A stretch of DNA of 26,470 nt, from the NCBI GenBank assembly GCA_964365645.1, contig CAYIQU010000001.1:1-26470 (forward strand), given 5' to 3'. A program made the translations under genes and the position numbers. The stretch's first letter is position 1, and the number at the start of each line of letters is the position of its first letter. The notes below the pieces were generated by a model. It worked only from the letters and a program-made list of their open reading frames with translations, did not search any database and was not told the origin of the DNA. This DNA comes from an uncultured Hyphomicrobiales bacterium. GTDB lineage: Bacteria; Pseudomonadota; Alphaproteobacteria; Rhodospirillales; 2-12-FULL-67-15. This document shows, piece after piece, positions 739 to 17,404 of this stretch.

Positions 739-829
739 TGTCAGATGTTCGTGGCGCCCGCTCCCGAACTTGAACCGGCCCTCTTGAAATAAAGGTGGCC
801 CGTTGCGGGGTCTCATTGAACCCTTGGGG

Positions 830-862
830 ATTTTAAGTCGGATTTTGAATTATTAAGAATCA
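830..862 (+). repeat. Degenerate 33-bp AT-rich dispersed repeat, copy 1
   Basis: ATTTTAAGTCGGATTTTGAATTATTAAGAATCA matches 18558-18590 at 25/33 ungapped positions, in the same orientation. Confidence 0.45.
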
Positions 863-952
863 GCGGCCCGAATTGACGTTTAATACCCCCTCGAAAGGGC
901 CGCGCTGCCCAGGGATTTAGCAATATCGGAAAATCCGTTTTATATCGAGCCC

Positions 953-2344
953 CTATCGCTCGATCCTGTAGCGGCGCATTTTCTCCCAGAGCGTTTTTCG
1001 GGAAATGCCGAGTTCTTCCGCGGCCCTGGCGATCGCCCATTTGTGGCGGGTGAGCGATGTTCGGATGGCTTGTTGTTCGGCCCCTTCCATTTGAGCCTTG
1101 AGCGCCGGCGGACCGTTGGAACTACCTTCATCCGCCGCCCCTCCGGATTCCAGGGTGAACAGGTCGTGCTCCTCGATCTGGCTGCCGTCGCAGAAAGTAA
1201 TCGCCCGTTCAATCGCATTTCTGAGTTCCCGCGCGTTGCCGGGCAACGGCCTGGACAACAACTGCGCCAACGCCGCGCCCGAAAGTCCGGTGATCCGCTT
1301 TTCCGCCGCCATCGGATCAAGCGCGATGAATCGCTCCGCCAGGAACGGAATATCCTCGAGACGCTCGCGCAACGGGGGTATTTCGATATGAATGACATTA
1401 AGCCGCCAGTAGAGATCGGCGCGAAATCGACCGGCGTTGATCGCGGCCTTGATGTCCTCTTGAGTCGCCGCGATAACCCGCACGTCGAGCCGTATCGAAT
1501 CGTTGCCGCCGACCCGCTCGACGATGCGTTCTTGCAATACGCGCAGGAGCTTGACTTGCGTCTCGGGCGGAATCTCGGCGATCTCATCGAGAAAAATGGT
1601 TCCGCCTTGTGCCTGCTCGAATCGGCCGATCCGGCGCCGGTCCGCCCCGGTGAACGCGCCCTTTTCGTGCCCGAATAGTTCGCTTTCAACCAGCCCGGCC
1701 GGTATCGCGGCGCAATTGACTTTGACGAATGGCGCACCGGCGCGGGCACTGTTCGCATGGATCAAGTTGGCCATCACTTCCTTGCCGACGCCCGATTCAC
1801 CGGTAATCAACACGGAACTGTTTCCCTGGGCCACGCGCGGCACCAGCCGCTCGAGCCGGCGCATGATCGCGCGTCGTCCAAGGACAACCGATCCCGTGCG
1901 AACGGGCGCGCCGTCCGGACCGATCATCCCGGCCGACTGGCGCATATCCGAAATCCGCGCCAGCAATCGCCGCACCAGGCCAACGAAGGCATCCATCGCG
2001 AATGGCTTGGTCAAATAGTCAACCGCCCCAGCCTTGACCACTTCGACCGCTTCCGGAATGGAACCAAACCCGGTCATCAGCACCACGGGCAGCCCCGGAA
2101 AGTGCCGGGAAACGTTATCAAAGAGGTCTCGGCCCGTCCCATCGGGCAGCCGGATATCCGTCACGATCAGGTCGATGGCGCCTTTTTCCAGCGCGGACTG
2201 CGCTTCCGCCAAGGACCCCGCCGAAACAACCTGGATTTTCTCCAGGCCCAGCCGGTCTTGAAGAGATAGACGCATGATCTCGTCGTCTTCCACCAGCAGG
2301 ACCGAAAGGTCGCCGAAATCCGAAGAGGGTGCGTTGTCGTTCAT
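953..2344 (-). CDS. Sigma54-dependent NtrC-family response regulator (AioR/ArxR-like position)
   Basis: Receiver domain (LLVEDD, VTDIRLPD, YLTKPF), AAA+ domain with Walker A GESGVGKE, GAFTGA loop and FLDEI, and a C-terminal Fis-type HTH (AAEELGISRKTLWEKM). Start reassigned to ATG 2344: ATGA overlap with the kinase stop and a GGAGGA upstream. Confidence 0.95.
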   Translation of the reverse strand: MNDNAPSSDFGDLSVLLVEDDEIMRLSLQDRLGLEKIQVVSAGSLAEAQSALEKGAIDLIVTDIRLPDGTGRDLFDNVSRHFPGLPVVLMTGFGSIPEAVEVVKAGAVDYLTKPFAMDAFVGLVRRLLARISDMRQSAGMIGPDGAPVRTGSVVLGRRAIMRRLERLVPRVAQGNSSVLITGESGVGKEVMANLIHANSARAGAPFVKVNCAAIPAGLVESELFGHEKGAFTGADRRRIGRFEQAQGGTIFLDEIAEIPPETQVKLLRVLQERIVERVGGNDSIRLDVRVIAATQEDIKAAINAGRFRADLYWRLNVIHIEIPPLRERLEDIPFLAERFIALDPMAAEKRITGLSGAALAQLLSRPLPGNARELRNAIERAITFCDGSQIEEHDLFTLESGGAADEGSSNGPPALKAQMEGAEQQAIRTSLTRHKWAIARAAEELGISRKTLWEKMRRYRIER

Positions 2345-3825
2345 ATCTCCCAATCCTCCTTCGGCGCTATTTTCAGGCCGGGCAGCCGAACACGGAATAA
2401 ACTTCCCTTTTCGATTTCGCTTTGCACCTCGATCGTTCCGCTCATGCTTTCCACCAACCGATAAGTGATCCAAAGGCCCAATCCGGTGCCCGAACTGCGG
2501 GTCGTGAAAAAGGGATCGAACAGACGACTGAGGTTTTCCTCCGGAATACCGCTGCCGTTATCCTCGGCTTCGATGATGACCGCATCTCCATCGAGATAAG
2601 CGCGAAACGCAAGATCGCCGGCATTGCCAAGCGCCTGTATTCCGTTGCGCAACAGATTCAACGCTACCTGCTGTACTTTCTGCGAATTCAGGCGCACGTC
2701 ATCACCCAAGCGGTTTTCCCATTCGAAGGAAATCTTCCGATCCCCGATCTCGGCAAGAATCAATTCGCGGACGTCATCGAGGCACTGCCCGCCGGCGAAC
2801 TGTTCAGCCCCTTCGGCCCGCAACTCCACCAGCAACGCCTGGACAATGGTGCTAATTCGGTTCAGGCCCTTTTCAATCAAGGGAAGATAGCGTGCCGCCA
2901 GATTGGTATCCTCCGGATGCGCCTTCAGGGTGTCGATGCAATTCAGCATCCCCGCCAAGGGATTGTTGACCTCATGCGCCACACCCGCCGCGATCCGGCC
3001 CAGCGCCACGAGTTTCTCCGAAACCGCCAATTGCTGCTCGAGTTTCTGCTTTTCGGAAAGCTCCTGGGTCATGCGGTTGAAGGCGCCGACCAAATGATCG
3101 ATTTCGTCATCGGTATGTTCCGCCACCGCCGGCACCGTCCCGACCTCGCCACGGCCGACCGTGTCCATCGCCGCCGCCAGCGCATGAACGGGGCGAACCA
3201 GGCGATTGGATATAATCGCCCCCAGGCCGCTGCCCAATATGACCAGCACGAAAGTCAGGCTGAGAATGGTGATCGTCGCCGAACGGGTTTGCGCCCTGAT
3301 TTCATCCGTCGATAAGCGCAGCCGCACGATGCCATGGATAGACTCGCCCGAGCGGATCGGCACGACTCCTTCGATGAATCCGGCGCCACCGTGGATCACA
3401 CTGGTGGTACGCATTTCGAGAGCCCGCCGAAGTAACGCGCCCTCGGCGGGATTTTGCTCCGATATCCGCCGCCCAAGAGGATGGATTCCGGGATCGAGAT
3501 GCGCGATCACGCGACCATCGGGATCGAGAACCATGGCCGTGAGAATACGGGCGTCGCGGGCGCCTCCCGCGGAACGGGCGGTCATTTGCCGAAGCGTCTT
3601 GTAAACAGCCCAGTAATCATTGCTCGCTGCCGCTTCCGATGCCGTCGCGGCGATGGCACGGCCAAGAACAAGCGCTCGCTCCTCGATCGAGGCCTCAAGA
3701 CGACTGCGTTCTTGGGTTATAATCGCGATCCCGATCGTGAACGCAACCGCGGCGGTTACCGCCGTAATGGTCAATGGCAGCTTGGCTAGAAGGCTCCAGT
3801 GTCGGGGGTGTCGAAATCTGATCAT
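2341..3825 (-). CDS. Membrane sensor histidine kinase (2 TM, HAMP, HisKA, HATPase_c)
   Basis: Two hydrophobic segments flank a periplasmic domain. HAMP (DEIDHLVGAFNRM), H-box AHEVNNPL, N-box NLLRNGIQA, DNGSGI, FDPFFTT and GTGLGL. ATGA overlap with the upstream gene. Confidence 0.95.
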   Translation of the reverse strand: MIRFRHPRHWSLLAKLPLTITAVTAAVAFTIGIAIITQERSRLEASIEERALVLGRAIAATASEAAASNDYWAVYKTLRQMTARSAGGARDARILTAMVLDPDGRVIAHLDPGIHPLGRRISEQNPAEGALLRRALEMRTTSVIHGGAGFIEGVVPIRSGESIHGIVRLRLSTDEIRAQTRSATITILSLTFVLVILGSGLGAIISNRLVRPVHALAAAMDTVGRGEVGTVPAVAEHTDDEIDHLVGAFNRMTQELSEKQKLEQQLAVSEKLVALGRIAAGVAHEVNNPLAGMLNCIDTLKAHPEDTNLAARYLPLIEKGLNRISTIVQALLVELRAEGAEQFAGGQCLDDVRELILAEIGDRKISFEWENRLGDDVRLNSQKVQQVALNLLRNGIQALGNAGDLAFRAYLDGDAVIIEAEDNGSGIPEENLSRLFDPFFTTRSSGTGLGLWITYRLVESMSGTIEVQSEIEKGSLFRVRLPGLKIAPKEDWEI

Positions 3826-4697
3826 GGACGTGGTATCGCGATCATCCGGGCCTTCATGTTCTCGGCATTGCGACGGATACCGTCGAATACCTTGGGATCC
3901 GGCGGCGAGAATCGATCCAGGGCCAAATCCCTGAGCAGCCGCCGCCCCTCGGCATCCTCGTTCATTTTGATGATGGCTTCGGCCATGCGCCGGTTCAAAT
4001 CGCGATTGCCGTGACGCAGCGCAACGATGGGCGGAAACCCGAACAATTCGGAACGGGAAATAACCTTGGTTCTTTTGGTCAGCTGCGGTTGCGTGCGTGC
4101 CAGATATTCCCAGACGTAAGAATCGACCGCGCCGCCCTCGGCCACTTTTTCCGCCACGGCCTCTATGGTTTCAGCATGGCTATAGGTGAAAAAAGTCAAA
4201 CGGAAAAACGCGTCCGGGTTTTTGCCGAGCTTCAAAACAAGCGAGCGCGGCACCAAGTATCCCGAATTCGAGTCAGGATCGGAAAAAGCAAATGTTCGAT
4301 CTTCAAGATCGGCCAGTCCTTCCAGCGGGCTGTCCCGATGTACGATCGTGTAGGAGCGATAGAGCGGCGCCCCCTCGAATTCCGGCAGCGCCAGCAAATC
4401 GAAGAATCCTTGGTCGCTGTGGCGCACGTAGGGATATCCGCAGATCCAAGCGAAATCGACCTGCCCGGTTTCCAGCAATTCCATGACCTCGCGGTAGGAA
4501 CGGCGCTGCACAAACTGAACCGGACGCCCGACTTTCTGGGCCAGATAGCGGCTCCAAGCCTGGTAGAAGGGAACGTTCTCGCGCACCACGACGGCGGTCA
4601 GCCCGAAACGCACCGGCGCCGGCTCGGCGGCGCGCGCCGGCAGGGCGAAGAAAAACGCGACAACTAACAACGCAAGAACACGCGGCCGGGGCGTCAT
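3822..4697 (-). CDS. Periplasmic PhnD-fold oxyanion-binding protein, AioX/ArxX-like, acting with the two-component system
   Basis: Sec signal (…FALPARA|AEP). Phosphonate-binding-family motifs YRSYTIV, FAFSDPDSNSGYLVP and GAVDSYVW, plus FAWICGYPY with a Cys. No ABC permease or ATPase nearby; translationally coupled to the kinase. Confidence 0.85.
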   Translation of the reverse strand: MTPRPRVLALLVVAFFFALPARAAEPAPVRFGLTAVVVRENVPFYQAWSRYLAQKVGRPVQFVQRRSYREVMELLETGQVDFAWICGYPYVRHSDQGFFDLLALPEFEGAPLYRSYTIVHRDSPLEGLADLEDRTFAFSDPDSNSGYLVPRSLVLKLGKNPDAFFRLTFFTYSHAETIEAVAEKVAEGGAVDSYVWEYLARTQPQLTKRTKVISRSELFGFPPIVALRHGNRDLNRRMAEAIIKMNEDAEGRRLLRDLALDRFSPPDPKVFDGIRRNAENMKARMIAIPRP

Positions 4698-5497
4698 CGC
4701 TCATTCCTCCCTTTTGGCAATGCTCTTGCGGCACTGTCCAAAACAACGTCACGCGGATCGGGCTCGTCAAAAGGACCGGGACGGAAACGATAAACAGCCC
4801 GTGCTTCCACGAACAGCGCGCCGGATCGATCCGGTATCGCAAACTCAATAATAGCAGGTTTGCCGCGAACGAGGCTAAGGTCTTTCCAATGTCCCTCCCC
4901 ATCCCGCACCCAGCCGAACCTGTGCAAATCGCGCCAAACCGGCAGTCCGCGTTCATTGCGTCCGACGACTTCCAGCCAGACCGACCGGCCGGTCGTTCCC
5001 CCCGGCAGGGCATGGCCGGCCCGGTGCGAAATCCGCAGCAACGCGGTCCAGTTTTCTTTCTCCCGTCGCAAGTGCAAATCCAAGCGAGCCACTCCATCGA
5101 GAAAACCCGGCCGGCTCGGACCCTGAAAATCATGACCAGCCGCGTGGCAGGCGCGGCAATCGGTCGCCGCCGCCGCGCTGCGGACCGTATTTTCTCCAGG
5201 CGCGTCATGGCAGCGCGCGCAAATCTCCGCCGCCGATCCTGTCGCCCGGCCATGACCGTCCGCCCCATGGCAGTCCCCGCAGACCAGACCGTTTCCGCCG
5301 CTGGGCGCGTGACACGATCGGCAGGCCCCGGATTGCCCGGCTTCGGACTGGCTCGCGTGAAAATCCGGACTCGACGCCGCCCGGGCCATCGCCGAGCGCG
5401 CGAATTCGTCGGCTTGGCGTGGATGACACGCGGCGCAATCCACCGCGCCCACCGGACAGGCCGAGACCAAAACCAATAACGCCATCAGCCACCGCAT
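4694..5497 (-). CDS. Exported pentaheme c-type cytochrome (267 aa)
   Basis: Five CxxCH motifs (CAACH, CRSCH, CGDCH, CARCH, CRACH). N-terminal signal MRWLMALLVLVSAC (possible lipobox VSAC, or SPase I site VGA|VD). Start 5497 overlaps the upstream stop (TAATG). Confidence 0.85.
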   Translation of the reverse strand: MRWLMALLVLVSACPVGAVDCAACHPRQADEFARSAMARAASSPDFHASQSEAGQSGACRSCHAPSGGNGLVCGDCHGADGHGRATGSAAEICARCHDAPGENTVRSAAAATDCRACHAAGHDFQGPSRPGFLDGVARLDLHLRREKENWTALLRISHRAGHALPGGTTGRSVWLEVVGRNERGLPVWRDLHRFGWVRDGEGHWKDLSLVRGKPAIIEFAIPDRSGALFVEARAVYRFRPGPFDEPDPRDVVLDSAARALPKGRNER

Positions 5498-5970
5498 TAC
5501 CGGTACTCCTGAGCGGGTTCGTTTTGTTCGCAGAGCCCACGAGGAATGATGAATGGAACTGTTCCGGGCACCGCGAAGCTGCCCGGGGTTTCCACCGGCA
5601 AGCCAGCCGCGCGCCAAGCCGAGAAGCCGCCCTCCAGCACAAGAACCGCGTACCCCGCCCCGCGCAATCGTCGCGCCCAGGCCGCTTGCCGGGAGGCATC
5701 GCCCGGTTCGATCAGCACCGCGGTTCCGCCCCGGCTGTCCGGCAGGAATCCCTCCGGGTCAAGGCCTCCCCGTAGCGCGCCGGGAACGGTCCCGGCCGAA
5801 TAAGCGTCGGCGTCGCGTAGATCAAGAATCAACGGCGGTGTGCGTCCGGATGATCGCCGCGCCAGTTCGGCGGCGGAGATCGCGCCGATGTCGTTAGCGT
5901 AAGCGGAGACAAAAAGAGTCAAGAAAACGGCGAGAACGGCGGCGGCCTTTCGCACGAGCCTTGCCGTCAT
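5497..5970 (-). CDS. Exported rhodanese-fold protein lacking the active-site Cys (157 aa)
   Basis: Signal peptide (…FVSAYA|ND). Rhodanese motifs LILDLRDADAYSAGTVPGA and VLEGGFSAWRAAGLPVE. The active-site loop reads VLIEPGDASR. Start 5970 by ATGA overlap. Confidence 0.85.
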   Translation of the reverse strand: MTARLVRKAAAVLAVFLTLFVSAYANDIGAISAAELARRSSGRTPPLILDLRDADAYSAGTVPGALRGGLDPEGFLPDSRGGTAVLIEPGDASRQAAWARRLRGAGYAVLVLEGGFSAWRAAGLPVETPGSFAVPGTVPFIIPRGLCEQNEPAQEYR

Positions 5971-6692
5971 ACCGCCGCGCTTGATCGCTTGAACGGCTGC
6001 AGCGGCAGTTCGCGCCCAAGGGCCGCGCTCAGTTCCTCGAGACTCCACGTAGCGGCAACGGTTGTCGCGACGATCGCCGCCTGAGCCCCGCCTTCGGCGC
6101 GCAACGTCGCGAGGTGACGCGGTTCGGTCGCGCCGCCCGAAAGCCAAAGACCGCCTTTGTAATTCCGCCGCGCCCGCTCCAACAACTCCAGGTCCAGGCC
6201 GTTGCCTTTCTCGGCCGCGTCAAACCCATGCAGCCAAACCGTCACGAACCCCAATTCGGTCGCACGCGCCAGCCACGCGTCGGTCGTCTGTTCGCCGTCG
6301 CTGACGTTGAAGCCGCGAATTGCCGCCGTGTCGGGGACAAAAACGCGAAAGCCCTCGCCAGGATAGCGATCACCCATTTCATAAATCACCTGCGGCCGAT
6401 ACCCCCCGGTGCGCGGCACCCAAACCAGATCGGGAAATCGATCGCGGCACCGTGCGGTTTCTTCCAGGCCTTCGGCCACCCATGCCGTGCGCGGCAGGCC
6501 GATCCAGGGGGTTTTTTCGGCGGGCATTCCGCGCAGGATGACGAACCCCGGGCCGGCGTCATCGGCGCCGTGAACGGCCGGATCGAGGATGCGCCCGTCG
6601 ACCAGCGCCGCCAGTTCCTGGGGCAAGTCCGCTTCGTCGAATTCGACCGCGAAGTGAAACGGCAACGTGGGTACGGTTGGCTTATCATTCAT
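5967..6692 (-). CDS. HisA/HisF-like (beta/alpha)8-barrel protein, divergent
   Basis: The C-terminal half resembles HisA/HisF (ELGFVTVWLHGFD…GNGLDLELLERAR…LWLSGGA…HLATL…GAQAAIV); the N-terminal half is poorly conserved. Overlaps both neighbours. Confidence 0.6.
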   Translation of the reverse strand: MNDKPTVPTLPFHFAVEFDEADLPQELAALVDGRILDPAVHGADDAGPGFVILRGMPAEKTPWIGLPRTAWVAEGLEETARCRDRFPDLVWVPRTGGYRPQVIYEMGDRYPGEGFRVFVPDTAAIRGFNVSDGEQTTDAWLARATELGFVTVWLHGFDAAEKGNGLDLELLERARRNYKGGLWLSGGATEPRHLATLRAEGGAQAAIVATTVAATWSLEELSAALGRELPLQPFKRSSAAV

Positions 6693-7593
6693 CGACCAGT
6701 CTCCTCCAGAACGCGTCGCTTTCGGCCGGATCCATTTTCCCCCGCCCCTTGCGGTCGCGCTCGAGAGCCTCCAGCGTCTTGCCCGCCAAGTCGCCGAAGG
6801 CTTTCGCCGCCGCGCTTTGCGGGGATGCCGTCACCAACGGCGAGCCGTCGTCGGCCGCCGATTGCGCGGCGGGATCGAGGGGAACACGGCCGAGAAACGG
6901 AACGTGCCGGCGTTTCGCCAGCGCCTCGACCTGCCCGGCGCCGAACAGGGGCTGCTCCTCGCCGCAGCAGGGACAAATAAACGTGAACATATTTTCGACC
7001 AACCCAAAAACGGGGATGTCCAGCTCGTGAAACATGGCGATGCCGCGCTCGGCGTCGATGGTCGCCAATTTTTGCGGCGTCGAAACGATCACCGCTCCGG
7101 CGACAGGTATTTGCTCGAGGATCGTCAACTGCACATCGCCGGTTCCAGGCGGCAGGTCGACCAGCAGCACATCGAGGTCGGGCCAGGCCACCTCGCGAAA
7201 CATCTGCACCGTCGCCTGCGTGATGATCGGACCTTTCCAGGCCAAGGTCGCTTCGGGGGGTACCAGATTGCCCATGGACACCGACCATATCCCATGCGCG
7301 AAGGCAGGCACGGCACGCCCCTGCTCGTCGGTTGCCAGCCCTTCGCCGCTGCCCAACATCCGGGCCACCGAGGGACCGGTGAGATCGGCGTCCAAAACGC
7401 CGGTCCGCAATCCACGCGCGGTCAAGGACGCCGCCAGGTTGACGGTCAAGGTCGATTTTCCGACGCCGCCCTTGCCGCTGGCGATCAGGACGACGTCGCG
7501 CACGCCGGGGATCACGGCCAAGGCGGTCTCGGGCGCGATTTCGGCATCCGCCTCTTTCCCGCCGCATTCGCAATTTGTTCCGCACCCGGTCAT
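6685..7593 (-). CDS. Mrp/ApbC/NBP35 Fe-S cluster carrier ATPase with a Cys-rich N-terminus
   Basis: Deviant Walker A GKGGVGKST, DADLTGPS, DLPPGTGD and ENMFTFICPCC. N-terminus MTGCGTNCEC. Confidence 0.92.
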   Translation of the reverse strand: MTGCGTNCECGGKEADAEIAPETALAVIPGVRDVVLIASGKGGVGKSTLTVNLAASLTARGLRTGVLDADLTGPSVARMLGSGEGLATDEQGRAVPAFAHGIWSVSMGNLVPPEATLAWKGPIITQATVQMFREVAWPDLDVLLVDLPPGTGDVQLTILEQIPVAGAVIVSTPQKLATIDAERGIAMFHELDIPVFGLVENMFTFICPCCGEEQPLFGAGQVEALAKRRHVPFLGRVPLDPAAQSAADDGSPLVTASPQSAAAKAFGDLAGKTLEALERDRKGRGKMDPAESDAFWRRLVDE

Positions 7594-8648
7594 GCCCGAA
7601 TCTCCCTTGAAGACTTAGCCGATCCGGCCAGAAACTCCGCCAGGGTCCGCACCGCTTCAGCCATCGGCGAGTCCGGCAAAGCCAAGATCGCCGGATTGCC
7701 CGTGTCGCTGACGCCAACGACATCGGGCAGGAAAGGAATACGCGCCAGCAATGGCAAGCCCGTTTCTTCCGCCAAGGTCCGGCCGCCGCCCGTCCCAAAC
7801 AAGGCATGCGCGGCGCCGCACCGCCGGCAGACAAGGCCGGCCATGTTCTCGACAATGCCGAGACAGGGCACGGCGATGTCGGCGAACATTTCAAGGCCGC
7901 GCCGGACGTCCTGCACCGAGGTTTGCCCCGGCTGGGTCACCGCGATCACCCCGGACAGACCGGCATGCCGCGCGACGGCAAGATGAACGTCGGATGTTCC
8001 CGGGGGCAAATCGACCAGCAGCAGATCGAGGGGCCCCCAATCCACCTCGGTCATAAGCTGCGGCAGGCCTTCATCCACCAAGGACCCACGCCAGATCAGC
8101 GCCTTTTCGGCCGGCAGCAGAAATCCGAGCGACATGACCTTGATCCCGAAAGCCTCGCGTGGGGCAATGCGTTTCCCGTCGTCGGTGGTTTCCGCCCGCC
8201 CGGACACTCCGAGCAAGGTCGGGGCCGAGGGACCGTAGACGTCGGCGTCGAGGAGGCCGACGCGCAAGCCCCGTTCCGCCAGCGCCACCGCTAGATTCGC
8301 CGTCAGCGTCGATTTTCCGACTCCGCCTTTCCCGCTGTGAACACCAATGACCCGATCCACGCCGGGCAATCCGCCCTCGGCCAAACGTCGGGGCCGCGGC
8401 TTCACCACCACCCGTATGACACCCGGAACGGCGCGCACGAGATCGGTCAACACCTCGGCCAGGGATTCCGCGTCCTCGCCGCCGACGCGGTCCGTGTTCA
8501 TCAGCACCCGCACCGCGCCGCCGGTCGCCACCACTTCGTGCACCAGCCCGGCGCTCAACACATCGGGCCCGCCCTCGCCCACGGTCACCGCGGCAATGGC
8601 CTTGAGCACGCGCTCTTCCAAAATCTCCGGCGATATCGATGGGGTCAT
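7590..8648 (-). CDS. Mrp/ApbC/NBP35 Fe-S cluster carrier ATPase with an N-terminal DUF59-like domain
   Basis: GKGGVGKST, DADVYGPS, DLPPGTSD and ENMAGLVCRRC. The ~95-aa N-terminal extension resembles DUF59 (DVLSAGLVHEV). Confidence 0.92.
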   Translation of the reverse strand: MTPSISPEILEERVLKAIAAVTVGEGGPDVLSAGLVHEVVATGGAVRVLMNTDRVGGEDAESLAEVLTDLVRAVPGVIRVVVKPRPRRLAEGGLPGVDRVIGVHSGKGGVGKSTLTANLAVALAERGLRVGLLDADVYGPSAPTLLGVSGRAETTDDGKRIAPREAFGIKVMSLGFLLPAEKALIWRGSLVDEGLPQLMTEVDWGPLDLLLVDLPPGTSDVHLAVARHAGLSGVIAVTQPGQTSVQDVRRGLEMFADIAVPCLGIVENMAGLVCRRCGAAHALFGTGGGRTLAEETGLPLLARIPFLPDVVGVSDTGNPAILALPDSPMAEAVRTLAEFLAGSAKSSREIRA

Positions 8649-8905
8649 GGTATCCGTGTTTCTTCCAAATAGCGCGCGATGATCTCGGCTTCCTTGCCGC
8701 CGATGACGTCTTCGCCGCCGTTGCTTTCCCGCATCATGCGAACGATTTCCGCCATCTCATTCCGTTGATATCGAGACATGTCCGGAAGGGCATGACAAGC
8801 GGCACAACGCGCGCGGTAAAGTTCGGCCGGCGTGCGCGGCTGCGCATGCCACCACGCGCCGAACACAGCGGCCAACACCGCCACAACCGCCAAGCCCCGG
8901 CGCAC
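8645..8905 (-). CDS. Small exported or membrane-anchored monoheme c-type cytochrome (86 aa)
   Basis: GTG start with GGAGG upstream, N-terminal hydrophobic stretch, a single CAACH and downstream Met residues as candidate distal ligand. Confidence 0.8.
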   Translation of the reverse strand: MRRGLAVVAVLAAVFGAWWHAQPRTPAELYRARCAACHALPDMSRYQRNEMAEIVRMMRESNGGEDVIGGKEAEIIARYLEETRIP

Positions 8906-8909
8906 TGGC

Positions 8910-10091
8910 TCATCCTCCCATCATGCCAAACCATTCGTCATCCATTTCCCGCTCATTGCGGCATTGGGGGCAAAGGCCGTTGCCATCGGCCGCATCGGCG
9001 GCGAAAGTCAGACCGCATTTGCCGCAACCGGTCAGGGCCTGCGACGCCAATTCACGAGGCTCTTCATCCGATGGTGGCACTATTCCGATTGTTTCCGCCC
9101 GTACCACGCGAGGCGGGCAAACGCTGCCGCACAGACCGCATGCCGTGCACCGCTCGGCGCGAAAGGTGACGGCGATCCGTTCCGGATTCGAGACGGAGGC
9201 GAGCGCCCCGGTTGGACAGAGATCCGAGCAGGCGGCGCAAAGCGTGCAGCCGGGTTCGAAGCGGCGCGGCAGCCAGGGCGGGCGGGCTTCCCGGCCCCAA
9301 GGCAGATCGGCCCGCCGGTGCGCCATGGCCTCAAGGAACGGGTGCGGACGCTGGCGGCGATGGCGCGGCATCGCGGCGCGGAGCTGATCCGCCGCGTCGT
9401 CTTCGGCGGTCGTCTCAGGTACCAAGAAAGAAAGCCCGGCCGTCGCCCCGGACATGGTTCTTAATCTGGCCAATCGCAGGAATCCGCGGCGATTGGTATG
9501 GATCTGGTCCTGGTGATCTTTCTTTGTCTCGGCTTCGGCGCCGCCTTCGGCTTCGCGGACTTCCGGGGCGTTGTCGCCGAACCAGCCGCGCAACGTGGCG
9601 CGCATTTCCGCCAACCCGTCATGAGCGTCGCCTTTCCCGCACCGGCCGCAGTTTTCGAGACCGTGCAAAGCCAGGATGCGCGTGCCGCCTGCAAGCGCCG
9701 CGCCGACCAAGCGGGCATCCAACAGCAGGTGGCAAGGCACCACCACGCCGCCGCCGACATCCGTGCTGGCCGAACAATGGATATGCGCCGCGTTCTTTTC
9801 CGCGATCGCGGCCAGGAACCGTTCGGGCTGGAATACCGCCAGCCGGAAGGCCCCGGCCGGACAGGCCGGCACGCAGGCGCCGCACCCGGTGCAGTCGCTT
9901 TCCTTGAGATCAAGCGCAAGATCGCCCGCCGCCACCGCCTGAACCGGACAAGCGGCCTCGCACCGGCTGCAGATGCGCTGACGTCCGCGCAGGTTGACGC
10001 AGTACTCATCGTCAATCAGCAGATAGGAGCCGCCGCCCGGCAACAGGCTCGCCGGGCTTGCACGTCGCTCGCTGCCTGTCGGTCCGTTCAT
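8910..10091 (-). CDS. Cytoplasmic polyferredoxin (4 x [4Fe-4S] motifs plus extra Cys pairs), NapF/ArxB2-like accessory Fe-S protein
   Basis: C..CSRCEAACP, CTGCGACVPACP, CTLCAACSDLCP and CTACGLCGSVCP, plus C-terminal CGKC…CPQC. Start 10091 by ATGA overlap with the upstream gene. Confidence 0.88.
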   Translation of the reverse strand: MNGPTGSERRASPASLLPGGGSYLLIDDEYCVNLRGRQRICSRCEAACPVQAVAAGDLALDLKESDCTGCGACVPACPAGAFRLAVFQPERFLAAIAEKNAAHIHCSASTDVGGGVVVPCHLLLDARLVGAALAGGTRILALHGLENCGRCGKGDAHDGLAEMRATLRGWFGDNAPEVREAEGGAEAETKKDHQDQIHTNRRGFLRLARLRTMSGATAGLSFLVPETTAEDDAADQLRAAMPRHRRQRPHPFLEAMAHRRADLPWGREARPPWLPRRFEPGCTLCAACSDLCPTGALASVSNPERIAVTFRAERCTACGLCGSVCPPRVVRAETIGIVPPSDEEPRELASQALTGCGKCGLTFAADAADGNGLCPQCRNEREMDDEWFGMMGG

Positions 10092-10516
10092 GGCGCATCC
10101 TGCTCGACCGGAAGTTGCGCGGCGAGCCAACCGCGAAACCCACCGTCCAACACGACGACGTTCCGCGGCAACCGTCGACTCAGCGACTTGTTCAAGCGGG
10201 CAAGATCGACGGGACCGTCGTCGTAGAACACGACCGGACGACCGTCGACGAACAAGCTGCGGTCTTCCGCCAACAAAGCATAGGGCACATTTTGCGCGCC
10301 CGGCACGTGCAGTCCGGCATAGGCGTCGGGAGTTCGCAAGTCGATCAAATGGAAAACAACTCCCGGCCGGCCGCTTTTGATCAACTCAAGCAAGGATTCG
10401 GCCTCCATGCGCCGCTCCTGCGGGCCACAAGCCGCCGCGAGAAGAAGGACCGCCGCCGCGCACGCCGTTGCTCTCGAGGCACGGTCATGCAACCACCGGA
10501 TCGTCTGTTTCAGCAT
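10088..10516 (-). CDS. Rhodanese-fold probable lipoprotein with Asp at the catalytic Cys position
   Basis: LIDLRTPDAYAGLHVPGAQNVP and VLDGGFRGWLAAQLPVE; the loop reads PVVFYDDG. Signal-like LLLAAAC. ATG 10516 has GAGG upstream (the ORF finder start at 10555 is less likely). Confidence 0.82.
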   Translation of the reverse strand: MLKQTIRWLHDRASRATACAAAVLLLAAACGPQERRMEAESLLELIKSGRPGVVFHLIDLRTPDAYAGLHVPGAQNVPYALLAEDRSLFVDGRPVVFYDDGPVDLARLNKSLSRRLPRNVVVLDGGFRGWLAAQLPVEQDAP

Positions 10517-10922
10517 TGCCGGGTTCCTCGGCTTCGTCGGCCAGCTTGCGGCCAAGCCATTGAGTTACCGCCACCGCCGTCACCAGATTGGTGGCGAGCG
10601 GCACGCTGTTAAGATCGCAGGCCCGATAGAAAGGGTGGATATCCGGCTCGTCGCCGGCGGCTCCAATCGGATCGCGCAAGAAATAAACCGCGGCGATGCT
10701 GTTGGAGCACACCAATCCGCACAACTGGATTTCGCCCCCACGCCGGGCCGGGAAGACGCTGGTGACCTCGAATCCCAATTCCCGCTCGATCACCTCGCCG
10801 GTTTCCTGAGTGGACAGCAGGCGATAGTTTTCGAATACACGGCGCTCTTTCTGCATCAGCTTGAGAAGCGCTTTCTCCATGCGCCGATGGGCGATGAGAA
10901 TGACGGTGCGGACGTCGGGCAT
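10485..10922 (-). CDS. Methylglyoxal-synthase-like (MGS-fold) protein with substituted catalytic residues
   Basis: Colinear with MgsA motifs (LIAH, STQETG, RGGEIQL, FLRDP…EPDI, CDLNSVPLATN), but several active-site positions differ. Confidence 0.8.
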   Translation of the reverse strand: MPDVRTVILIAHRRMEKALLKLMQKERRVFENYRLLSTQETGEVIERELGFEVTSVFPARRGGEIQLCGLVCSNSIAAVYFLRDPIGAAGDEPDIHPFYRACDLNSVPLATNLVTAVAVTQWLGRKLADEAEEPGNAETDDPVVA

Positions 10923-10926
10923 AATG

Positions 10927-12078
10927 CTATCCCCCGATTGCCGGAGCCAATCGCGGCACCGACTCAGGCGCTCTCGCGGCCTGGGTCATGTCGGCATAAA
11001 GCCGGGCATGACCGAGGGCCAGGCGGTGGATCGCCTCCATCACCGATTCCTCGCGCGCGAGAGACTGGCGCATGGCCGCCAAACGGCCCGGCGATGCGAC
11101 CAAGGTATTCAGCGCCGCTGCCAAGGCGTCGCCGTTGTGGGCGGAAACGGTCAAGCCGTGTATCCCCTCATCAAAGCGGACAGCTTCGACCCGATCGCTC
11201 CGCAGGACCGGCAACGCGAAGGCTCCCGCCAAATCGAGCAACGGGCTCTTGCAGGTCTTCGCATAAGGCATCAGCAGCAAGTCGGCCGAGGTGAACAAGT
11301 CGGCCACTTCGGACGGATCGACGTAACGCTCCAGAACCTCGATGGCAACCTTGGCCCGCGCCGAAGCCAGCACCGCCGGATCCGTGCCGGAAAGAACTTC
11401 CTCGCCGGCAATCACTATTTTAACAAGCGGCGGAAATCCCCCCCGCGCCAGAACCGCCAGCAAGTGATCCAGGCCCTTGCGATGCGAACCATGGCCGAAA
11501 TAAAGCAGCCGGACTTCCCCCGGCTGCTTGGGCGAAAGCTCCGGCGCTCGGCGGCGCGGCGCTTCGGGATGCGCCATCAGGTTCGGGCTCCCGGGCAGAT
11601 ACACCACGCGGTCTCCGCCGAGGCCGAACATCTCCTCGAGTCCCCAGGCAATATGCGCGTCGCGCGCCACGATACGATCGAAGGCGCGATAAAGCGCATG
11701 GAATCCCGGTTGCGAAAGCCAACGGCGGCGGTGCGGCAGAAGATTATGCGGCGTATAAACCGTCGCGATCCCGCGCTGCTTCAGCCAGGCGAGGAACAAT
11801 CGGGCGGTCAAGGGATCTCCGACCCATTGAAAATGAACCACGTTCGGCGCGAATGCGCGCACTTGCGCGGCCAGACAGGCCCAGCCGACCCAACCCGCCT
11901 TGAAACAGGCTGTCTTGTCGAACGGCGTGCGCCAACCTTCTAATTCGTCGCGACTTCCTTCCACCAGCCGAACGCAGTGACCTATTTCAGTCAACCCAAG
12001 CGCTAGCGCATGGGCGTAGTGACACAGGAAGCCGCGTCCCGACCCCTCGACCAGCAATATGCGGTTTTGATGCTCCAT
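10927..12078 (-). CDS. GT-B fold glycosyltransferase, family 4-like, cytoplasmic
   Basis: NVVHFQW, VYTPHNLLPH, LLYFGHGSHRKGLDHLL, VIAG and LFTSADLLLMPY. No signal peptide. Confidence 0.85.
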   Translation of the reverse strand: MEHQNRILLVEGSGRGFLCHYAHALALGLTEIGHCVRLVEGSRDELEGWRTPFDKTACFKAGWVGWACLAAQVRAFAPNVVHFQWVGDPLTARLFLAWLKQRGIATVYTPHNLLPHRRRWLSQPGFHALYRAFDRIVARDAHIAWGLEEMFGLGGDRVVYLPGSPNLMAHPEAPRRRAPELSPKQPGEVRLLYFGHGSHRKGLDHLLAVLARGGFPPLVKIVIAGEEVLSGTDPAVLASARAKVAIEVLERYVDPSEVADLFTSADLLLMPYAKTCKSPLLDLAGAFALPVLRSDRVEAVRFDEGIHGLTVSAHNGDALAAALNTLVASPGRLAAMRQSLAREESVMEAIHRLALGHARLYADMTQAARAPESVPRLAPAIGG

Positions 12079-12087
12079 GGCTCCCCG

Positions 12088-12828
12088 CTAGAGGCCGGAT
12101 GCCTTGCGAAAATCCGGATCGGTCTTCATCCGCACGAGCGGACGTCCGTTCGCTTCGGCCAGTTCCTTGAGCCGCCGCGGCCCGGCCAGGCGACCGATGT
12201 CTTCCCACAGCACCCGTTCGACCAGATCGAGAACCTCAGCATAGAACGGATGCTGGGCAGCCCCGGCGGCGCGCCGACACCAGCCCGGCCCCCACTCGCC
12301 AAGCTGATCGAGAATAAATGTTTCGCGTTGCGTTTGCGCCGTTTCGGCCCTTGCTTCATCTTCGGATTCGACGGCGGCGGCTTCGATGTCAAAGAGAGTC
12401 CCGACGAATGAAAGCATGGTGCCGATATGATCGGGAAACTCGCCGCTCTGGCGACGCTCATAGACGAACCCTGCCGCCCGGTACGCCGCCTCGGCCCGAT
12501 CGCACTGTTCCTGCCCAAAAGCGCCGGTGGCAAAGACCGAAGCGAACGGAGAAACCGAGCCGGGCGCCGAAAACAGGCCGGTGTATTCCACGGCCAACCG
12601 CTCAAGAAGGGACTCGACGGGATCCGACAACAGATCATGGGGTAGCTTCACACCCATCTCGACCAGAGCCGCTCCCAATTCCCCGCGCAGCAAGGCCAAT
12701 AACTCCGCGTCGACCTCCTGCTCCAGAACACGGCCCAACAGATGATACAGCCCGGCTTGCGCCCGACAGTCTTCGACCCGTTCCTGTGCTTCGGAAGTCT
12801 CCCTCGACATCTCCTCGACTGAAACCAT
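12088..12828 (-). CDS. TorD/DmsD-family molybdoenzyme maturation chaperone
   Basis: EYTGLF, SPFASVF, EFPDHIGTML and HPFY motifs. ATG 12828 is preferred because GGGGAGGA lies 4 nt upstream; the frame is open to 12888. Confidence 0.9.
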   Translation of the reverse strand: MVSVEEMSRETSEAQERVEDCRAQAGLYHLLGRVLEQEVDAELLALLRGELGAALVEMGVKLPHDLLSDPVESLLERLAVEYTGLFSAPGSVSPFASVFATGAFGQEQCDRAEAAYRAAGFVYERRQSGEFPDHIGTMLSFVGTLFDIEAAAVESEDEARAETAQTQRETFILDQLGEWGPGWCRRAAGAAQHPFYAEVLDLVERVLWEDIGRLAGPRRLKELAEANGRPLVRMKTDPDFRKASGL

Positions 12829-12889
12829 CGCGTCCTCCCCGGTCGTCCCGTTTTTCATTGTCGTTCCATCGCCCATCATCCTTGTCAAG

Positions 12890-12934
12890 AAAAAGGCCGG
12901 GAGGGTGGCGGCTCATCTGTCCGCCACCCTCCCG
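12890..12934 (-). terminator. Intrinsic terminator-like hairpin between the catalytic subunit gene and the chaperone gene
   Basis: Perfect 14-bp GC-rich stem (12898-12911 / 12921-12934) with a 9-nt loop, followed on the minus strand by GCC and TTTTT. Confidence 0.65.
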
Positions 12935-12955
12935 AAGGCGTGGGAGGAAGGGAGA

Positions 12956-15616
12956 CTAGTGGCCGCCGCCCACCTGCGGTTTCGGCAAACGACTCCAGTC
13001 GATGTCGACTTCCTTGTGGTTCGCCCTGTGCAAATCGCCGGTGTAGGCGTAGCGCAAGGTTTCCTCGAATGCCTTCATGGCGGCCTCGGCGCTGACCTTG
13101 ATATCGCCGTACTTGTCGCCAGCCTGCGCTTTGGTCACGGTAACCACCGTGTCGTACCAGCCTTGCGAACCGCCGATTGGGTCGACCGACACCGGGATTA
13201 TGTGGTTCGGATGCACGCCCTTGTCGTCCCACCAGACGTTGCGGTCGATGTCGGGATCCCCGCCCTGCGCCCATTCGGCCTTCGGATCCTTTTGCTTGAG
13301 CTGGGCCAAGCGGCCATAGGCCGAGTGGCCGCAGGCGGTGGAAACGGCGATGACATCGGGATGCATCCCCTCGGTGACGTGCGCCTTGGTCACGATGTGG
13401 CCGAGTTGCGACGTGATGCGAATCAAATCGCCGTCGGCGATGCCGCGAGCCTTTGCCGTCTTCGAGTTTATCCAAGCCGGATTTTTGTGATAGAGCTCGG
13501 CCAGGGTCTTGAGCGAGGCGGTGCGGCTCTGGGTGTGAACGTTGACCTTGTACGTCGTCAAGATCAGCTCGTTGGGCTTCTTGTTGCGGGACGGAATGCG
13601 CTTGTAGACCGGCAACGGATTGAAGCCGTATTTCTTGTAGCTCTCCTTGTAGATCTCGATCTTGTGGGAATTCGTGCCGAAGCCGACGCAGTTCTTGCCG
13701 CTGGCCCGCACGCCGATGGCCTTGCCGCCCTTGGTGATGACATTGTCGGGCCCGACGGTCGCGCCTTCCATCTGCGCGGCCGTCAACTGTTTTTCATGCA
13801 GGCCGTATTCCGGCTTCACCTCGTTGCCGTTCTTGTCGACGATCTTCGACGTTTCCGGATCGACTTTTCCATAAATCGGCCAGACGCCTTTCTTTTTGAG
13901 GAAGTCGAGACCGCCCTCTTCCTTGAGACCGGGAATATTGTCGAAGTGGCCGCGCATCCACTCCTCGGGAGTCTTAAAGGCGAAATACTTCTTGATTCCG
14001 AGGGAACCGTCAGGATCGACCTTGTTCATGATCTCGATTGTGGATTGACGCCATTCCTGTGTGCCGCCCAGCGGCTTGATCACCGGCTGGCGGATGCCAA
14101 GCCAGGGTCGCAGGTCGTTAGGCATGGACTCGGCGTCCCACCGTTCGAGGTAGGTGACGTCGGGAATGATGAGGTCGGCCAGTTCCGCCGTCTCGGACAT
14201 GTAGGGACTGAAGGAGGCGAAGAACGGAATCAGCTTCTCATCCTTCATCATTCCTTCCCAGATGTGCCCGGCAGGATAGGTGTAGGCCGGGTTGTCATAG
14301 TACGTCATGTACACCGACACCTTCGCCTCGCCCTTCATGACCATGTAGGGCATGTGCGTGGAAACGGCGTGCGATGCCAACGGATAGAGCGGCGGCGCGG
14401 CCAGCACGCTCGGCACCTTACCACCGGGCGGTTTTGGGTCGGGCTGCGGCCAACCCATGCCGCGCGGCAGGCAATAGCCGCCGACCTTCTCGATGTTCCC
14501 GGTAATGACGTTGAGCATGTGGATCGCGGCTTCCTGGTAGGCGCCGTAGATGTGCTTGCAGGGACCGCGATAGGAGAAGGTGGTCGCCGGCTTGGTGGTC
14601 GCGAACTCGCGGGCGATGCGCCGAATGTCCTTGGCCGACATTCCCGACTCTTGTTCGGCAAATTCGGGAGTATAGGGCTTCAGGTGCGCGATCAGTTGTT
14701 CCGGCGTCACGTTCGTCCAATTGCGAATGAACGTTTCGTCGTAGAGATTTTCGTTCATGATGACGTGCGCCATCGCCAGCGCGATGGCGCTGTCGGTGCC
14801 CGGATAGGGGGCGAACCATTCGTCGGAAATGCCGGCGGTATTCGACAAGCGCGGATCGAAAGTGACGAGCTTGGCCTTGTTGCCGACCATGCCATCCATC
14901 AACCGCTGGGCGTTCGGGTTATGGAAATAGGCGGTTTCGACGATGTTGGAGCCGAAATTAAGAACGTACTTAGTGTTGGCCCAATCGCAGGACTCGATGT
15001 CCGGCCCCCATGAAGGCTCAAGTCCGACTTTTTTCGACGATTCGCAAACGTTGGTGTGGTTCACCATCGCGTTCGAGCCCAACGCCGCCATCATGCGCTG
15101 AATCCCGCCGCCGGTGCGATTGCGGCCCCACTTGAATACGATCTCGTTGAGAATCGCCGGATCGTTCGCCTTGCGCGAACGATCGACCACCTCGCGCAAC
15201 TTTTTCGCCAACAGCGTGGTCGCCTCGTCGTAGGAAATCCGCTTCCATTTGCCCTCGCCGCGTTTACCGGTACGCAGCAAGGGGGTCATGATCCGGTCGG
15301 GATCGTAGGTATGCTGGAAGCCGGCGTTGCCCTTGGCGCACAGCTTGCCGCGGGTGCCGGGGTGGTCGAGATTGCCTTCGAGCTTGACGATACGCCCGTC
15401 CTCGACATAGGCGATGCCGCCGTCCTGGATGTTGCAGACCATGCAGGTAAACGGAACCGCCTGGCGTTCCTTGCCGGTGACCGACGAGAAATCCTTGCCG
15501 CCCAGTTGCTGTTCCATCGCTTTGAGGCGCGTGCTGGCCAGCGCGGTTGCCGCCACCGCGGAAGTGCCGCCCAACTTCATGAAGCCGCGACGGCTCATCG
15601 GGAAGTGCTTGTTCAT
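12956..15616 (-). CDS. Tat-exported Mo/W-bisPGD oxidoreductase catalytic subunit (Psr/Ttr/Arr/Arx/Srr lineage; substrate unresolved)
   Basis: Tat motif SRRGFMK, FS0 motif CMVCNIQD-x27-C, YDPDRIMTPL, putative metal-ligand NHTNVC, DPRLSNTA, GTDSAIALAM, LADLIIPDVTYLERW and C-terminal molydopterin-binding motif HTQSRT…AWIN. GAGGAG RBS. Confidence 0.93.
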   Translation of the reverse strand: MNKHFPMSRRGFMKLGGTSAVAATALASTRLKAMEQQLGGKDFSSVTGKERQAVPFTCMVCNIQDGGIAYVEDGRIVKLEGNLDHPGTRGKLCAKGNAGFQHTYDPDRIMTPLLRTGKRGEGKWKRISYDEATTLLAKKLREVVDRSRKANDPAILNEIVFKWGRNRTGGGIQRMMAALGSNAMVNHTNVCESSKKVGLEPSWGPDIESCDWANTKYVLNFGSNIVETAYFHNPNAQRLMDGMVGNKAKLVTFDPRLSNTAGISDEWFAPYPGTDSAIALAMAHVIMNENLYDETFIRNWTNVTPEQLIAHLKPYTPEFAEQESGMSAKDIRRIAREFATTKPATTFSYRGPCKHIYGAYQEAAIHMLNVITGNIEKVGGYCLPRGMGWPQPDPKPPGGKVPSVLAAPPLYPLASHAVSTHMPYMVMKGEAKVSVYMTYYDNPAYTYPAGHIWEGMMKDEKLIPFFASFSPYMSETAELADLIIPDVTYLERWDAESMPNDLRPWLGIRQPVIKPLGGTQEWRQSTIEIMNKVDPDGSLGIKKYFAFKTPEEWMRGHFDNIPGLKEEGGLDFLKKKGVWPIYGKVDPETSKIVDKNGNEVKPEYGLHEKQLTAAQMEGATVGPDNVITKGGKAIGVRASGKNCVGFGTNSHKIEIYKESYKKYGFNPLPVYKRIPSRNKKPNELILTTYKVNVHTQSRTASLKTLAELYHKNPAWINSKTAKARGIADGDLIRITSQLGHIVTKAHVTEGMHPDVIAVSTACGHSAYGRLAQLKQKDPKAEWAQGGDPDIDRNVWWDDKGVHPNHIIPVSVDPIGGSQGWYDTVVTVTKAQAGDKYGDIKVSAEAAMKAFEETLRYAYTGDLHRANHKEVDIDWSRLPKPQVGGGH

Positions 15617-15652
15617 CGGTCTTCTCCTCTCGGTTTTTTCCGGTGCCGTCGA

Positions 15653-16528: not shown

Positions 16529-16543
16529 TGTTCGCTCCCTTTT

Positions 16544-17266: not shown

Positions 17267-17340
17267 GATAGTTCTCCCTCCTGCGGTTTGTTCAATTTCG
17301 CCGCGTCGATGGCGGCAGCCCCTGTTGCCGCGAGCCGTTC

Positions 17341-17388: not shown

Positions 17389-17404
17389 AGCATTTTTCAT
17401 GCCA
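17389..17404 (-). promoter_or_regulatory. Sigma54 (-24/-12) promoter of the molybdoenzyme operon
   Basis: Minus strand TGGCATGAAAAATGCT = GG-N10-GC, close to consensus TGGCAC-N5-TTGC(A/T). It lies ~125 nt upstream of the first start codon, and the operon encodes a GAFTGA activator. Confidence 0.75.

Follow-up and report, generated by a model that had tools for sequence, protein, structure and literature searches.

The stretch of DNA analysed here (the window; 26,470 nucleotides, positions 1 to 26,470 of contig CAYIQU010000001.1, assembly GCA_964365645.1) encodes a periplasmic sensor protein, a histidine kinase and a sigma-54-dependent activator, called X, S and R below, together with the genes of a membrane-anchored molybdoenzyme, B-C-A-D. 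We found that this sensor system, a relative of the AioX-AioS-AioR and ArxX-ArxS-ArxR systems, very probably controls the B-C-A-D operon, whose product is neither an Aio nor an Arx enzyme. To our knowledge, control by X-S-R is known for three enzyme systems only: Aio, Arx and Arr. The triad is a new member of a known family; what is new is its attachment to an unassigned enzyme family across three proteobacterial classes. Full-text literature searches returned no description of this enzyme family, named BCA here, or of X-S-R genes attached to it. A paper on arx diversity that covers Sulfuricystis thermophila strain M52 describes the arx cluster alone, and a survey of the dimethyl sulfoxide reductase superfamily mentions unassigned Cys-ligated lineages in general terms. 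The Thioalkalivibrio candidate for "alternative arsenite oxidation" proved to be SoeABC, unrelated to BCA.

Sensor genes at the end of a molybdoenzyme operon

The operon reads as one long string of minus-strand genes that runs from B-C-A-D through a set of accessory genes to X-S-R, the final three of its 17 genes. X (3822..4697) encodes a 291-aa periplasmic sensor protein of the AioX/ArxX family, with a signal peptide at approximately residues 1-23. S (2341..3825) specifies a membrane histidine kinase of 494 aa that consists, in order, of a first transmembrane segment, a periplasmic sCache_3_2 domain (39-182), a second transmembrane segment, HAMP (205-257), HisKA and HATPase_c (domains from Pfam). 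The product of R (953..2344) is a sigma-54-dependent response regulator of 463 aa composed of a receiver domain (Response_reg), an AAA+ domain (Sigma54_activat, 7.4e-70) carrying the GAFTGA motif and a Fis-type helix-turn-helix (HTH_8). For R we adopted the 463-aa reading and consider the 506-aa open reading frame that starts at a TTG to be over-extended. Both S and R have the architectures of an AioSR/ArxSR-type pair (periplasmic domain-HAMP-HisKA-HATPase and receiver-AAA+ with GAFTGA-HTH_8).

Most of this layout had been anticipated in the initial annotation, made from the letters alone. The PhnD-fold periplasmic protein that it described is identified by Pfam as Phosphonate-bd (PF12974, E 1.1e-59), and the two motifs singled out in it are present: FAWICGYPY, which contains Cys86 (codon 4440..4442, read from 4442 to 4440 on the minus strand), and SDPDSNSG at residues 139-146. 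The HAMP kinase and the GAFTGA activator are likewise confirmed by Pfam and by motif reading. The ATGA coupling between genes can be read directly where the stop of X overlaps the start of S (3825-3822) and where the stop of S overlaps the start of R (2344-2341); a third such overlap, newly found, joins the stop of the preceding cytochrome gene to the start of X (4697-4694). As the annotation had also stated, no gene for an ATP-binding cassette (ABC) ATPase or permease was found in the window by gene content and Pfam.

X belongs to the AioX/ArxX/ArrX subfamily

On its sequence, X is a member of the AioX/ArxX/ArrX subfamily of PhnD-like periplasmic binding proteins. We compared it with AioX, ArrX and TtrS through HMMER E-values and alignments. 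Its closest solved structure is AioX of strain NT-26 (PDB 6esv; E 1.5e-62, ~50% identity over 259 residues), and its second solved relative is ArrX (E 1.8e-41; 145 bits, against 214 bits for AioX). Binding proteins that serve transport trail (PhnD 5.5e-13, PtxB 1.9e-12; the range for PhnD, PtxB and HtxB together is 1e-10 to 1e-19), and the proposed AioX/ArxX-type identity is borne out by the distance between the AioX match and those to PhnD and PtxB (1e-12 to 1e-19). TtrS has a PhnD-like periplasmic domain; X gave no match to the TtrS model at E <= 1e-3.

The binding pocket of AioX is formed by Tyr88, Cys106, Tyr131, Ser161, Ser163, His192 and Asp210; the sulphur of Cys106 bonds arsenite, and PhnD lacks this residue (Badilla et al. 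2018, PMC5908839). All seven positions are conserved in the alignment of X to AioX, as Y68, C86, Y113, S143, S145, H174 and D192, respectively. The corresponding columns are invariant or nearly so among the relatives of X in two alignments (A1 and A2), and the Cys86 column is invariant in both. The initial annotation had placed the arsenite-binding Cys of AioX in a WICG-type motif, subject to alignment. This is correct: NT-26 AioX reads AWICGYPF and aligns column for column with the WICG region of X, so that Cys86 is the equivalent of the arsenite ligand Cys106. The resemblance extends to the signalling loop. Residues 33-41 of X (LTAVVVREN) align with residues 53-61 of AioX (LTPVFLSND), the two loops being of equal length and hydrophobic at three key positions; in the arsenate-binding ArrX the loop is shorter and more polar (PMC5908839).

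The enzyme forms a clade of its own

The structural genes (12088..17266, minus strand; Pfam and NCBIfam) encode a subunit with four iron-sulfur (FeS) clusters (B, 16544-17266, ATG at 17266), an NrfD-type membrane anchor (C, 15653-16528), an 886-aa catalytic subunit of the molybdenum bis-pyranopterin guanine dinucleotide type with a twin-arginine (Tat) export signal (A, 12956-15616) and a TorD/NarJ-type chaperone (D, 12088-12888). By homology and phylogeny, the enzyme is neither Aio nor Arr/Arx and constitutes a clade of its own in the radiation that includes Psr/Phs and Arr/Arx. None of the relevant NCBIfam models recognizes A at its cut-off: PhsA, the best, gives 366 bits (cut-off 694), ArrA 195 (1600), TtrA 107 (1750) and AioA (TIGR02693) 24 (359). 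By comparison, a control ArxA from an X-linked locus scores 432 bits with ArrA and 269 with PhsA, and a control AioA from a related X locus reaches 1259 bits on the AioA model. Among solved structures, A is closest to Thermus PsrA (2vpw, 5e-64), with ArrA (6cz7) at 1.5e-46.

A maximum-likelihood tree, built from 42 catalytic subunits with AioA as the root, places the window's A in a clade, BCA1 (Shimodaira-Hasegawa-like approximate likelihood ratio support 100), that is sister to a second, BCA2 (joint support 96). The BCA clades are separate from ArxA (100), from PhsA and from two further enzyme types, T3 (100) and M900, that are described below. PhsA of an E. coli plasmid lies outside the BCA clade on a long branch.

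The catalytic subunit, ~28% identical to ArxA, keeps the Cys ligand of molybdenum in NHTNVCESSKK, where ArrA has SHSSVCAEAHK (residues 189, 193 and 198). The position equivalent to Arg165 of ArrA is also shared. At the position of the RGRY motif of ArrA and the GRGWG motif of ArxA, A reads KWGRNRTG (residues ~160-170), with only Gly-Arg in common; the BCA2 version is KWGRDRTG. The published active-site motifs are (R/K)GRY for ArrA, XGRGWG for ArxA and SGRN(R/Q)G for Arx-like proteins of Ca. Methanoperedens (PMC13685797). KWGRNRTG resembles the last of these, which belongs to unusual enzymes.

Four assignments of the enzyme were tried and rejected. Membership in Aio fails on the 24-bit score with the AioA model. 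Membership in ArrA/ArxA fails on an ArrA score below the PhsA score, on the separate clade and on the missing full motifs, and the description of the enzyme as non-Aio and non-Arx in the initial annotation is upheld by the same results. A PhsA/PsrA equivalog is contradicted by the sub-threshold PhsA score and by a gene order that is B-C-A-D and not A-B-C. The identity with TtrBCA does not extend beyond gene order, since TtrB (202 bits, cut-off 416) and TtrC (62, cut-off 314) fall short in the window operon as TtrA does. A fifth reading, that of a divergent ArxA, was raised by a homologue 59% identical to A in the arx-bearing strain M52; it was discarded because M52 also encodes a true ArxA, served by an X-S-R of its own, and the tree places that ArxA and the BCA-type homologue in different clades.

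Wiring of the triad to the operon

The initial annotation had located the operon's promoter in the interval 17267-17620, and this is indeed the region upstream of B. It contains a predicted sigma-54 promoter on the minus strand, TGGCAT-N5-ATGC (-24/-12; TGGCATGAAAAATGC, 17390..17404), ~125-140 nt upstream of the B start. Farther upstream, in tandem and 93 bp apart, lie two palindromic upstream activating sequences (UAS), GTTACCGCTTCGTAAC (17492-17507) and GTTTCAGCGAGGTAAC (17585-17600), the presumed binding sites of R. The entire 2.37-Mb assembly contains a single exact GTTAC-N6-GTAAC, which is part of this pair, and with up to one mismatch allowed it contains one tandem palindrome pair, again that upstream of B. 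An rpoN gene was found in the genome. A simple scan of 700-5700 for sigma-70 promoters and terminators gave no separate, internal promoter for basal expression of X-S-R, a negative that tells neither for nor against the scheme.

The same arrangement recurs in other organisms. Of 82 related loci, 75 have a palindrome, mostly as a pair, at a distance of 115-470 nt in front of B, and a correctly oriented TGGC-N8-TGC follows in 54 of the 82, as opposed to 10 of 82 on the opposite strand. In aio, arx, T3 and M900 loci, palindromes of identical type separate X from its target operon. This agrees with a published description in which a tandem pair of palindromes precedes aioB only if aioXSR is also present (PMC3834237). 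BCA-type A is encoded in 80 species genomes and is adjoined by X in 67 of them; among the remaining 13 loci, only two or three have a flank long enough to exclude X. Of the 19 BCA1 loci, 18 have X-S-R downstream and on the operon's strand, which is the arrangement of the window, and all 48 BCA2 loci have it divergently upstream. In Inmirania thermothiophila (L012:14332-15699, L018:6736-9073) the triad is split: R alone directly follows the cytochrome gene at the operon end, and X and S are found ~5 kb away on the opposite strand.

On the strength of the unique UAS pair, the conserved palindrome and the adjacency of X, the operon can be counted as a true member of the AioR/ArxR-type regulon class, and apparently as the only one in this organism. 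The connection of X-S-R to the upstream promoter, proposed at the outset, is borne out by promoter, UAS and conserved adjacency alike.

A docking model supports the proposed binding between X and S. Mature X placed on the periplasmic domain of S received a score of 0.80, versus 0.18 for the best control. Of 80 solved complexes, 58 attained the mark applied, as did 2 of 110 mismatched pairs; these counts are only rough because our own alignments were used. Three runs shared 100% of their contacts, with a partner pLDDT (predicted local distance difference test) of at least 83. The modelled interface comprises residues 69-79 and 108-118 of S, including the invariant D70, W72, P112 and G118, and the segment of X that adjoins the ligand residue His174.

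We propose the following course of events. X would bind an arsenic oxyanion in the periplasm, most probably arsenite, through Cys86 and the pocket of Tyr, Ser, His and Asp residues. The loaded protein would then dock on the periplasmic Cache-like domain of S, which would autophosphorylate and pass the phosphate to R. Phosphorylated R would bind the tandem GTTAC-N6-GTAAC sites (17492-17600) and open the sigma-54 promoter (17390-17404). Transcription from this promoter would cover B-C-A-D, the accessory genes and X-S-R itself, generating a positive feedback. The product would be a Tat-exported, NrfD-anchored molybdoenzyme of the BCA family.

What X may sense and what the enzyme may act on

We consider arsenite the probable ligand of X. 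It is favoured by the arsenite binding measured for AioX and ArxX, the AioX-like loop, the nesting of Aio and Arx X proteins among those of BCA loci, the linkage to ars genes, the co-location with arx and the parts shared with arx operons. The expectation that X proteins would sort by target enzyme, and so reveal a ligand signature, was not fulfilled. In a tree of 138 X proteins there is no such sorting, and X proteins from Aio and Arx contexts nest among those from BCA contexts; no enzyme-specific X signature could therefore be derived. One Arx-context X has 69% identity with an X from a BCA2 context and 57% with other Arx-context X proteins; for another, identity is 64% with a BCA1-context X versus 50%. 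Similarly, an Aio-context X shares 68% identity with a BCA-context X as opposed to 58% with other Aio X proteins.

The genomic surroundings point the same way. Resistance genes of the ars type occur within 10 kb of 14 of 101 BCA loci, compared with 3 of 10 aio loci and none of 24 T3 loci. By our own rough estimate, which assumes that a genome has one or two ars operons, ~1% of randomly chosen 20-kb segments would contain one. On a plasmid of Azoarcus sp. KH32C, arsR-C-D-A-acr3 directly abuts R-S-X. Both Sulfuricystis genomes carry, within ~35 kb, a BCA2 cluster with its own X-S-R and an arx cluster for which a second, distinct X-S-R is present. The operon of the window also has the parts list of arx, the ArxB2-like polyferredoxin included, and A recalls ArrA and ArxA in its Gly-Arg motif and ArrA in the equivalents of residues 189, 193 and 198.

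That the B-C-A-D enzyme itself acts on arsenic is, judging from these comparisons, marginally favoured. The more specific notion that it oxidises arsenite, with electrons passing to quinone or cytochrome c, is plausible and falls somewhat short of an even chance. Tentatively, B-C-A-D might represent a third family of respiratory molybdoenzymes that transform arsenic, one so far unrecognised and induced by arsenite through X-S-R. The likeliest activity would be that of an anaerobic arsenite:quinone/cytochrome c oxidoreductase; as an alternative, the enzyme might act on thioarsenic species.

Several observations weigh against such a role in arsenic metabolism. As the initial annotation had noted, the window has no ars genes (tblastn with ArsR, ArsC, ArsD, ArsA and Acr3 queries); ars, aio and arx genes were found neither in the window nor in the assembly (2.37 Mb, 565 contigs, 73.5% complete), where searches for AioA, ArrA/ArxA and Acr3 were also negative. 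The majority of BCA loci (87 of 101) have no ars gene within 10 kb. The context labels of the X tree span only +/-10 kb. The catalytic subunit contains neither RGRY nor GRGWG, carries Pro at the position of Tyr210 in ArrA, and finds its best model in PhsA. Many carriers are sulfur oxidisers (Sedimenticola, Allochromatium, Thiobacillus, Sulfuricella, Inmirania). Finally, the conserved pocket does not set selectivity, since ArrX retains it and yet binds arsenate (PMC5908839).

Much of this can be read in favour of an alternative in which X has been retuned to an oxyanion other than those of arsenic (thiosulfate, tetrathionate, polysulfide, sulfite, selenite, antimonite or phosphite) and B-C-A is a Psr/Phs/Ttr-type enzyme that oxidises or reduces sulfur or selenium compounds. 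The PhsA and Thermus PsrA matches of A, the sulfur-oxidising habit of many carriers, the scarcity of ars genes and the limited meaning of pocket conservation all suit it. So does the B-C-A gene order, which is also that of ttrBCA and srdBCA, even though the accompanying TtrB and TtrC scores are below cut-off; and the operon includes rhodanese-like genes. The sulfite or selenite that the initial annotation had listed among possible inducers on account of neighbouring genes is, however, weakened by the rhodanese-like proteins themselves: both lack the catalytic Cys and are for this reason not evidence for sulfur transfer. The absence of a TtrS-model match for X, the interleaving of X proteins from aio and arx loci with those of BCA loci (at up to 69% identity) and the enrichment of ars genes beside the BCA cluster likewise argue against this alternative. 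Three X proteins have been tested biochemically, and all bound arsenic oxyanions only, except that ArrX also bound phosphate weakly; the dissociation constants for arsenite were 177 nM for AioX and 311 nM for ArxX, and the authors concluded that each X binds the substrate of its own enzyme (PMC5908839). On balance, a ligand other than arsenite or arsenate is unlikely, if still a reading to be taken seriously, and the full scheme in which such a ligand is paired with a sulfur or selenium enzyme is rather unlikely as well.

It is improbable that X senses arsenate as ArrX does, and equally so that the enzyme represents a new family of respiratory arsenate reductases. ArrX does have the same pocket and Cys, A shares with ArrA the positions equivalent to Arg165, His189, Cys193 and Lys198, and the NrfD-type anchor recalls ArrC. 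In opposition to this, X is much nearer to AioX than to ArrX by bit score and has the hydrophobic loop of the AioX type. The carriers are Alpha-, Beta- and Gammaproteobacteria, which we take to be ubiquinone organisms. The presence of Arr is reported to correlate with menaquinone and that of Arx with ubiquinone (PMC13685797). The last possibility is that the adjacency is incidental, with X-S-R serving an aio or arx operon that falls in the 26% of the genome missing from the assembly, or with X being an orphan transporter-binding protein. This view may draw on the incompleteness of the assembly and on the arx operon near the BCA cluster of Sulfuricystis, but it is made highly improbable by the assembly's only tandem UAS pair lying upstream of B, the translational coupling of X-S-R to the operon, the recurrence of the pairing in 67 of 80 species, the separate X-S-R of the Sulfuricystis arx operon and the lack of permease or ATPase genes in the window.

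Relation to known systems and to two sister families

Among known systems, the triad is closest to AioX-AioS-AioR of Rhizobium sp. NT-26 and Agrobacterium tumefaciens, an arsenite sensor that controls aioBA. The X proteins are ~50% identical and agree in pocket, Cys106 and loop type; gene order, domain architectures and a target preceded by a sigma-54 promoter and a tandem pair of palindromes are also common to both. The target differs, being a B-C-A-D enzyme of the Tat/NrfD type and not AioBA (a Rieske protein and AioA), and X-S-R stands at the 3' end of the target operon, whereas AioXSR stands in front of it. The ArxXSR system with arxB2ABCD (Alkalilimnicola ehrlichii; Sulfuricystis thermophila M52) resembles that of the window in sensor family, UAS palindrome and type of host. 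Its enzyme likewise has a Cys-ligated molybdenum subunit, a four-cluster FeS protein, an NrfD anchor, a TorD-like chaperone and a B2-type polyferredoxin. It differs in that the window's A is only distantly related to ArxA, lies in another clade, scores higher with PhsA than with ArrA and has WGRNRTG in place of XGRGWG; moreover, the gene order is B-C-A-D and the window subtype has about nine extra accessory genes.

With ArrX-ArrS-ArrR and arrAB of Chrysiogenes arsenatis the window shares the binding-protein subfamily, the pocket with its Cys and the three-component logic. ArrX is the more distant relative, binds arsenate, has a shorter, more polar loop (PMC5908839) and serves another enzyme family. 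The parallels with TtrSR/ttrBCA and with PsrABC and PhsABC concern the enzyme: the B-C-A order in Ttr, the Cys-ligated, Tat-exported and NrfD-anchored design, and the PhsA and PsrA matches of A. These systems are set apart by the equivalog cut-offs that the window proteins do not reach (PhsA 366/694, TtrA 107/1750, TtrB 202/416) and, in the case of TtrSR, by a sensor that is here a free periplasmic binding protein plus a kinase, not a fusion, and by a regulator that is sigma-54-dependent.

Two further molybdoenzyme families linked to X-S-R were encountered. T3 is represented by 24 loci (typical, L103:1795-13744; others include L106, L108, L120 and L125). Tandem GTTAC-N6-GTAAC sites precede a NapC/NirT-type multihaem cytochrome gene, B, A and D, followed by genes for a dihaem cytochrome c, a Cys-less rhodanese and a cytochrome c and then by X-S-R; there is no NrfD subunit. 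Its A is ~39% identical to that of the window (PhsA 318 bits), and its X, S and R are the nearest relatives of the window's (63%, 51% and 62%). The hosts are lucinid-clam symbionts (Ca. Thiodiazotropha), Sedimenticolaceae and marine Alphaproteobacteria. M900, a Psr-like enzyme of ~900 aa (PhsA 279 bits; L019:1700-4600, L110:6909-9960), has GHGK in place of the GR motif, and the same palindrome is found in front of its gene. In S. thermophila M52 the gene is flanked by the BCA2 and arx clusters, and in Rhodoplanes azumiensis it is oriented divergently from X. In the chromosomes of S. thermophila and S. multivorans (L014/L181), the ~35-kb region, which is the first 35 kb directly beside dnaA-dnaN-gyrB, holds two paralogous X-S-R sets, BCA2, a flavocytochrome c sulfide dehydrogenase, M900 and arx; in M52, matches resembling ArsR and ArsC are located at its far end.

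Accessory genes and the remainder of the window

Between D and X, the minus strand (4694..12078; Pfam and open reading frames) encodes, in order of transcription, a GT4 glycosyltransferase (10927-12078), an MGS-like protein (10485-10922), a Cys-less rhodanese-like lipoprotein (10088 to ~10516), the ArxB2-like polyferredoxin (8910-10130), an 86-aa protein (8645-8905), two Mrp/NBP35 ATPases (7590-8648 and 6685-7593), a TIM-barrel-like protein of 241 aa (5967-6692), a second Cys-less rhodanese-like protein (5497-5970) and a pentahaem cytochrome c (4694-5497). The set is found in the same order in Inmirania and in a metagenome-assembled genome (MAG) of the Rhodospirillales, and in 16-23 further genomes, the number varying with the gene. 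Both rhodanese-like proteins are exported, and their active-site loops read VFYDDGPVD (10088-10516) and LIEPGDAS (5497-5970). The former is similar to the rhodanese of T3, and its gene is an addition with no counterpart in the clusters of the closest relatives; the latter has a conserved C-terminal tail, VPFxIPRGLCExNxPAQExR, in common with Inmirania and the Rhodospirillales MAG.

A nitroreductase-family gene (17855-18469, plus strand) diverges from the promoter region of the operon. Beyond it, a separate string of minus-strand genes (18713-26292), unconnected with the operon, has the appearance of an organic-acid or acyl-CoA pathway. It includes genes for an aldehyde dehydrogenase-like protein (23811-25244), the beta and alpha subunits of a succinyl-CoA-ligase-like enzyme (22664-23788 and 21789-22817), a thiamine-diphosphate enzyme (19946-21721) and acetate kinase (18713-19927), with a divergent LysR regulator gene at 25396-26292. 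The stretch has been found in groundwater metagenomes of several studies, which speaks to habitat only.

Implications

BCA is widespread, occurring in at least 80 species of groundwater and sediment Alpha-, Beta- and Gammaproteobacteria. The pairing of X with the enzyme in 67 of the 80 suggests that a further family of arsenic-linked respiratory enzymes may have gone unnoticed. It may not be the only one: judging from the upstream regions, the AioR/ArxR-type enhancer appears to be common to no fewer than three enzyme families yet to be characterised (BCA, T3 and M900). The hypothesis is directly testable because carriers are in culture, among them Sulfuricystis, Sedimenticola, Thauera, Aromatoleum, Hydrogenophaga taeniospiralis and Azoarcus sp. 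KH32C. The X proteins are, in addition, candidate parts for arsenic biosensors.

The mobility of arsenic in aquifers is a public-health problem. If the rule that X binds what its enzyme metabolises holds here, then BCA, T3 and M900 would be missing pieces of the anaerobic arsenic cycle in aquifers, and surveys that count aioA, arxA and arrA alone would be blind to such enzymes.

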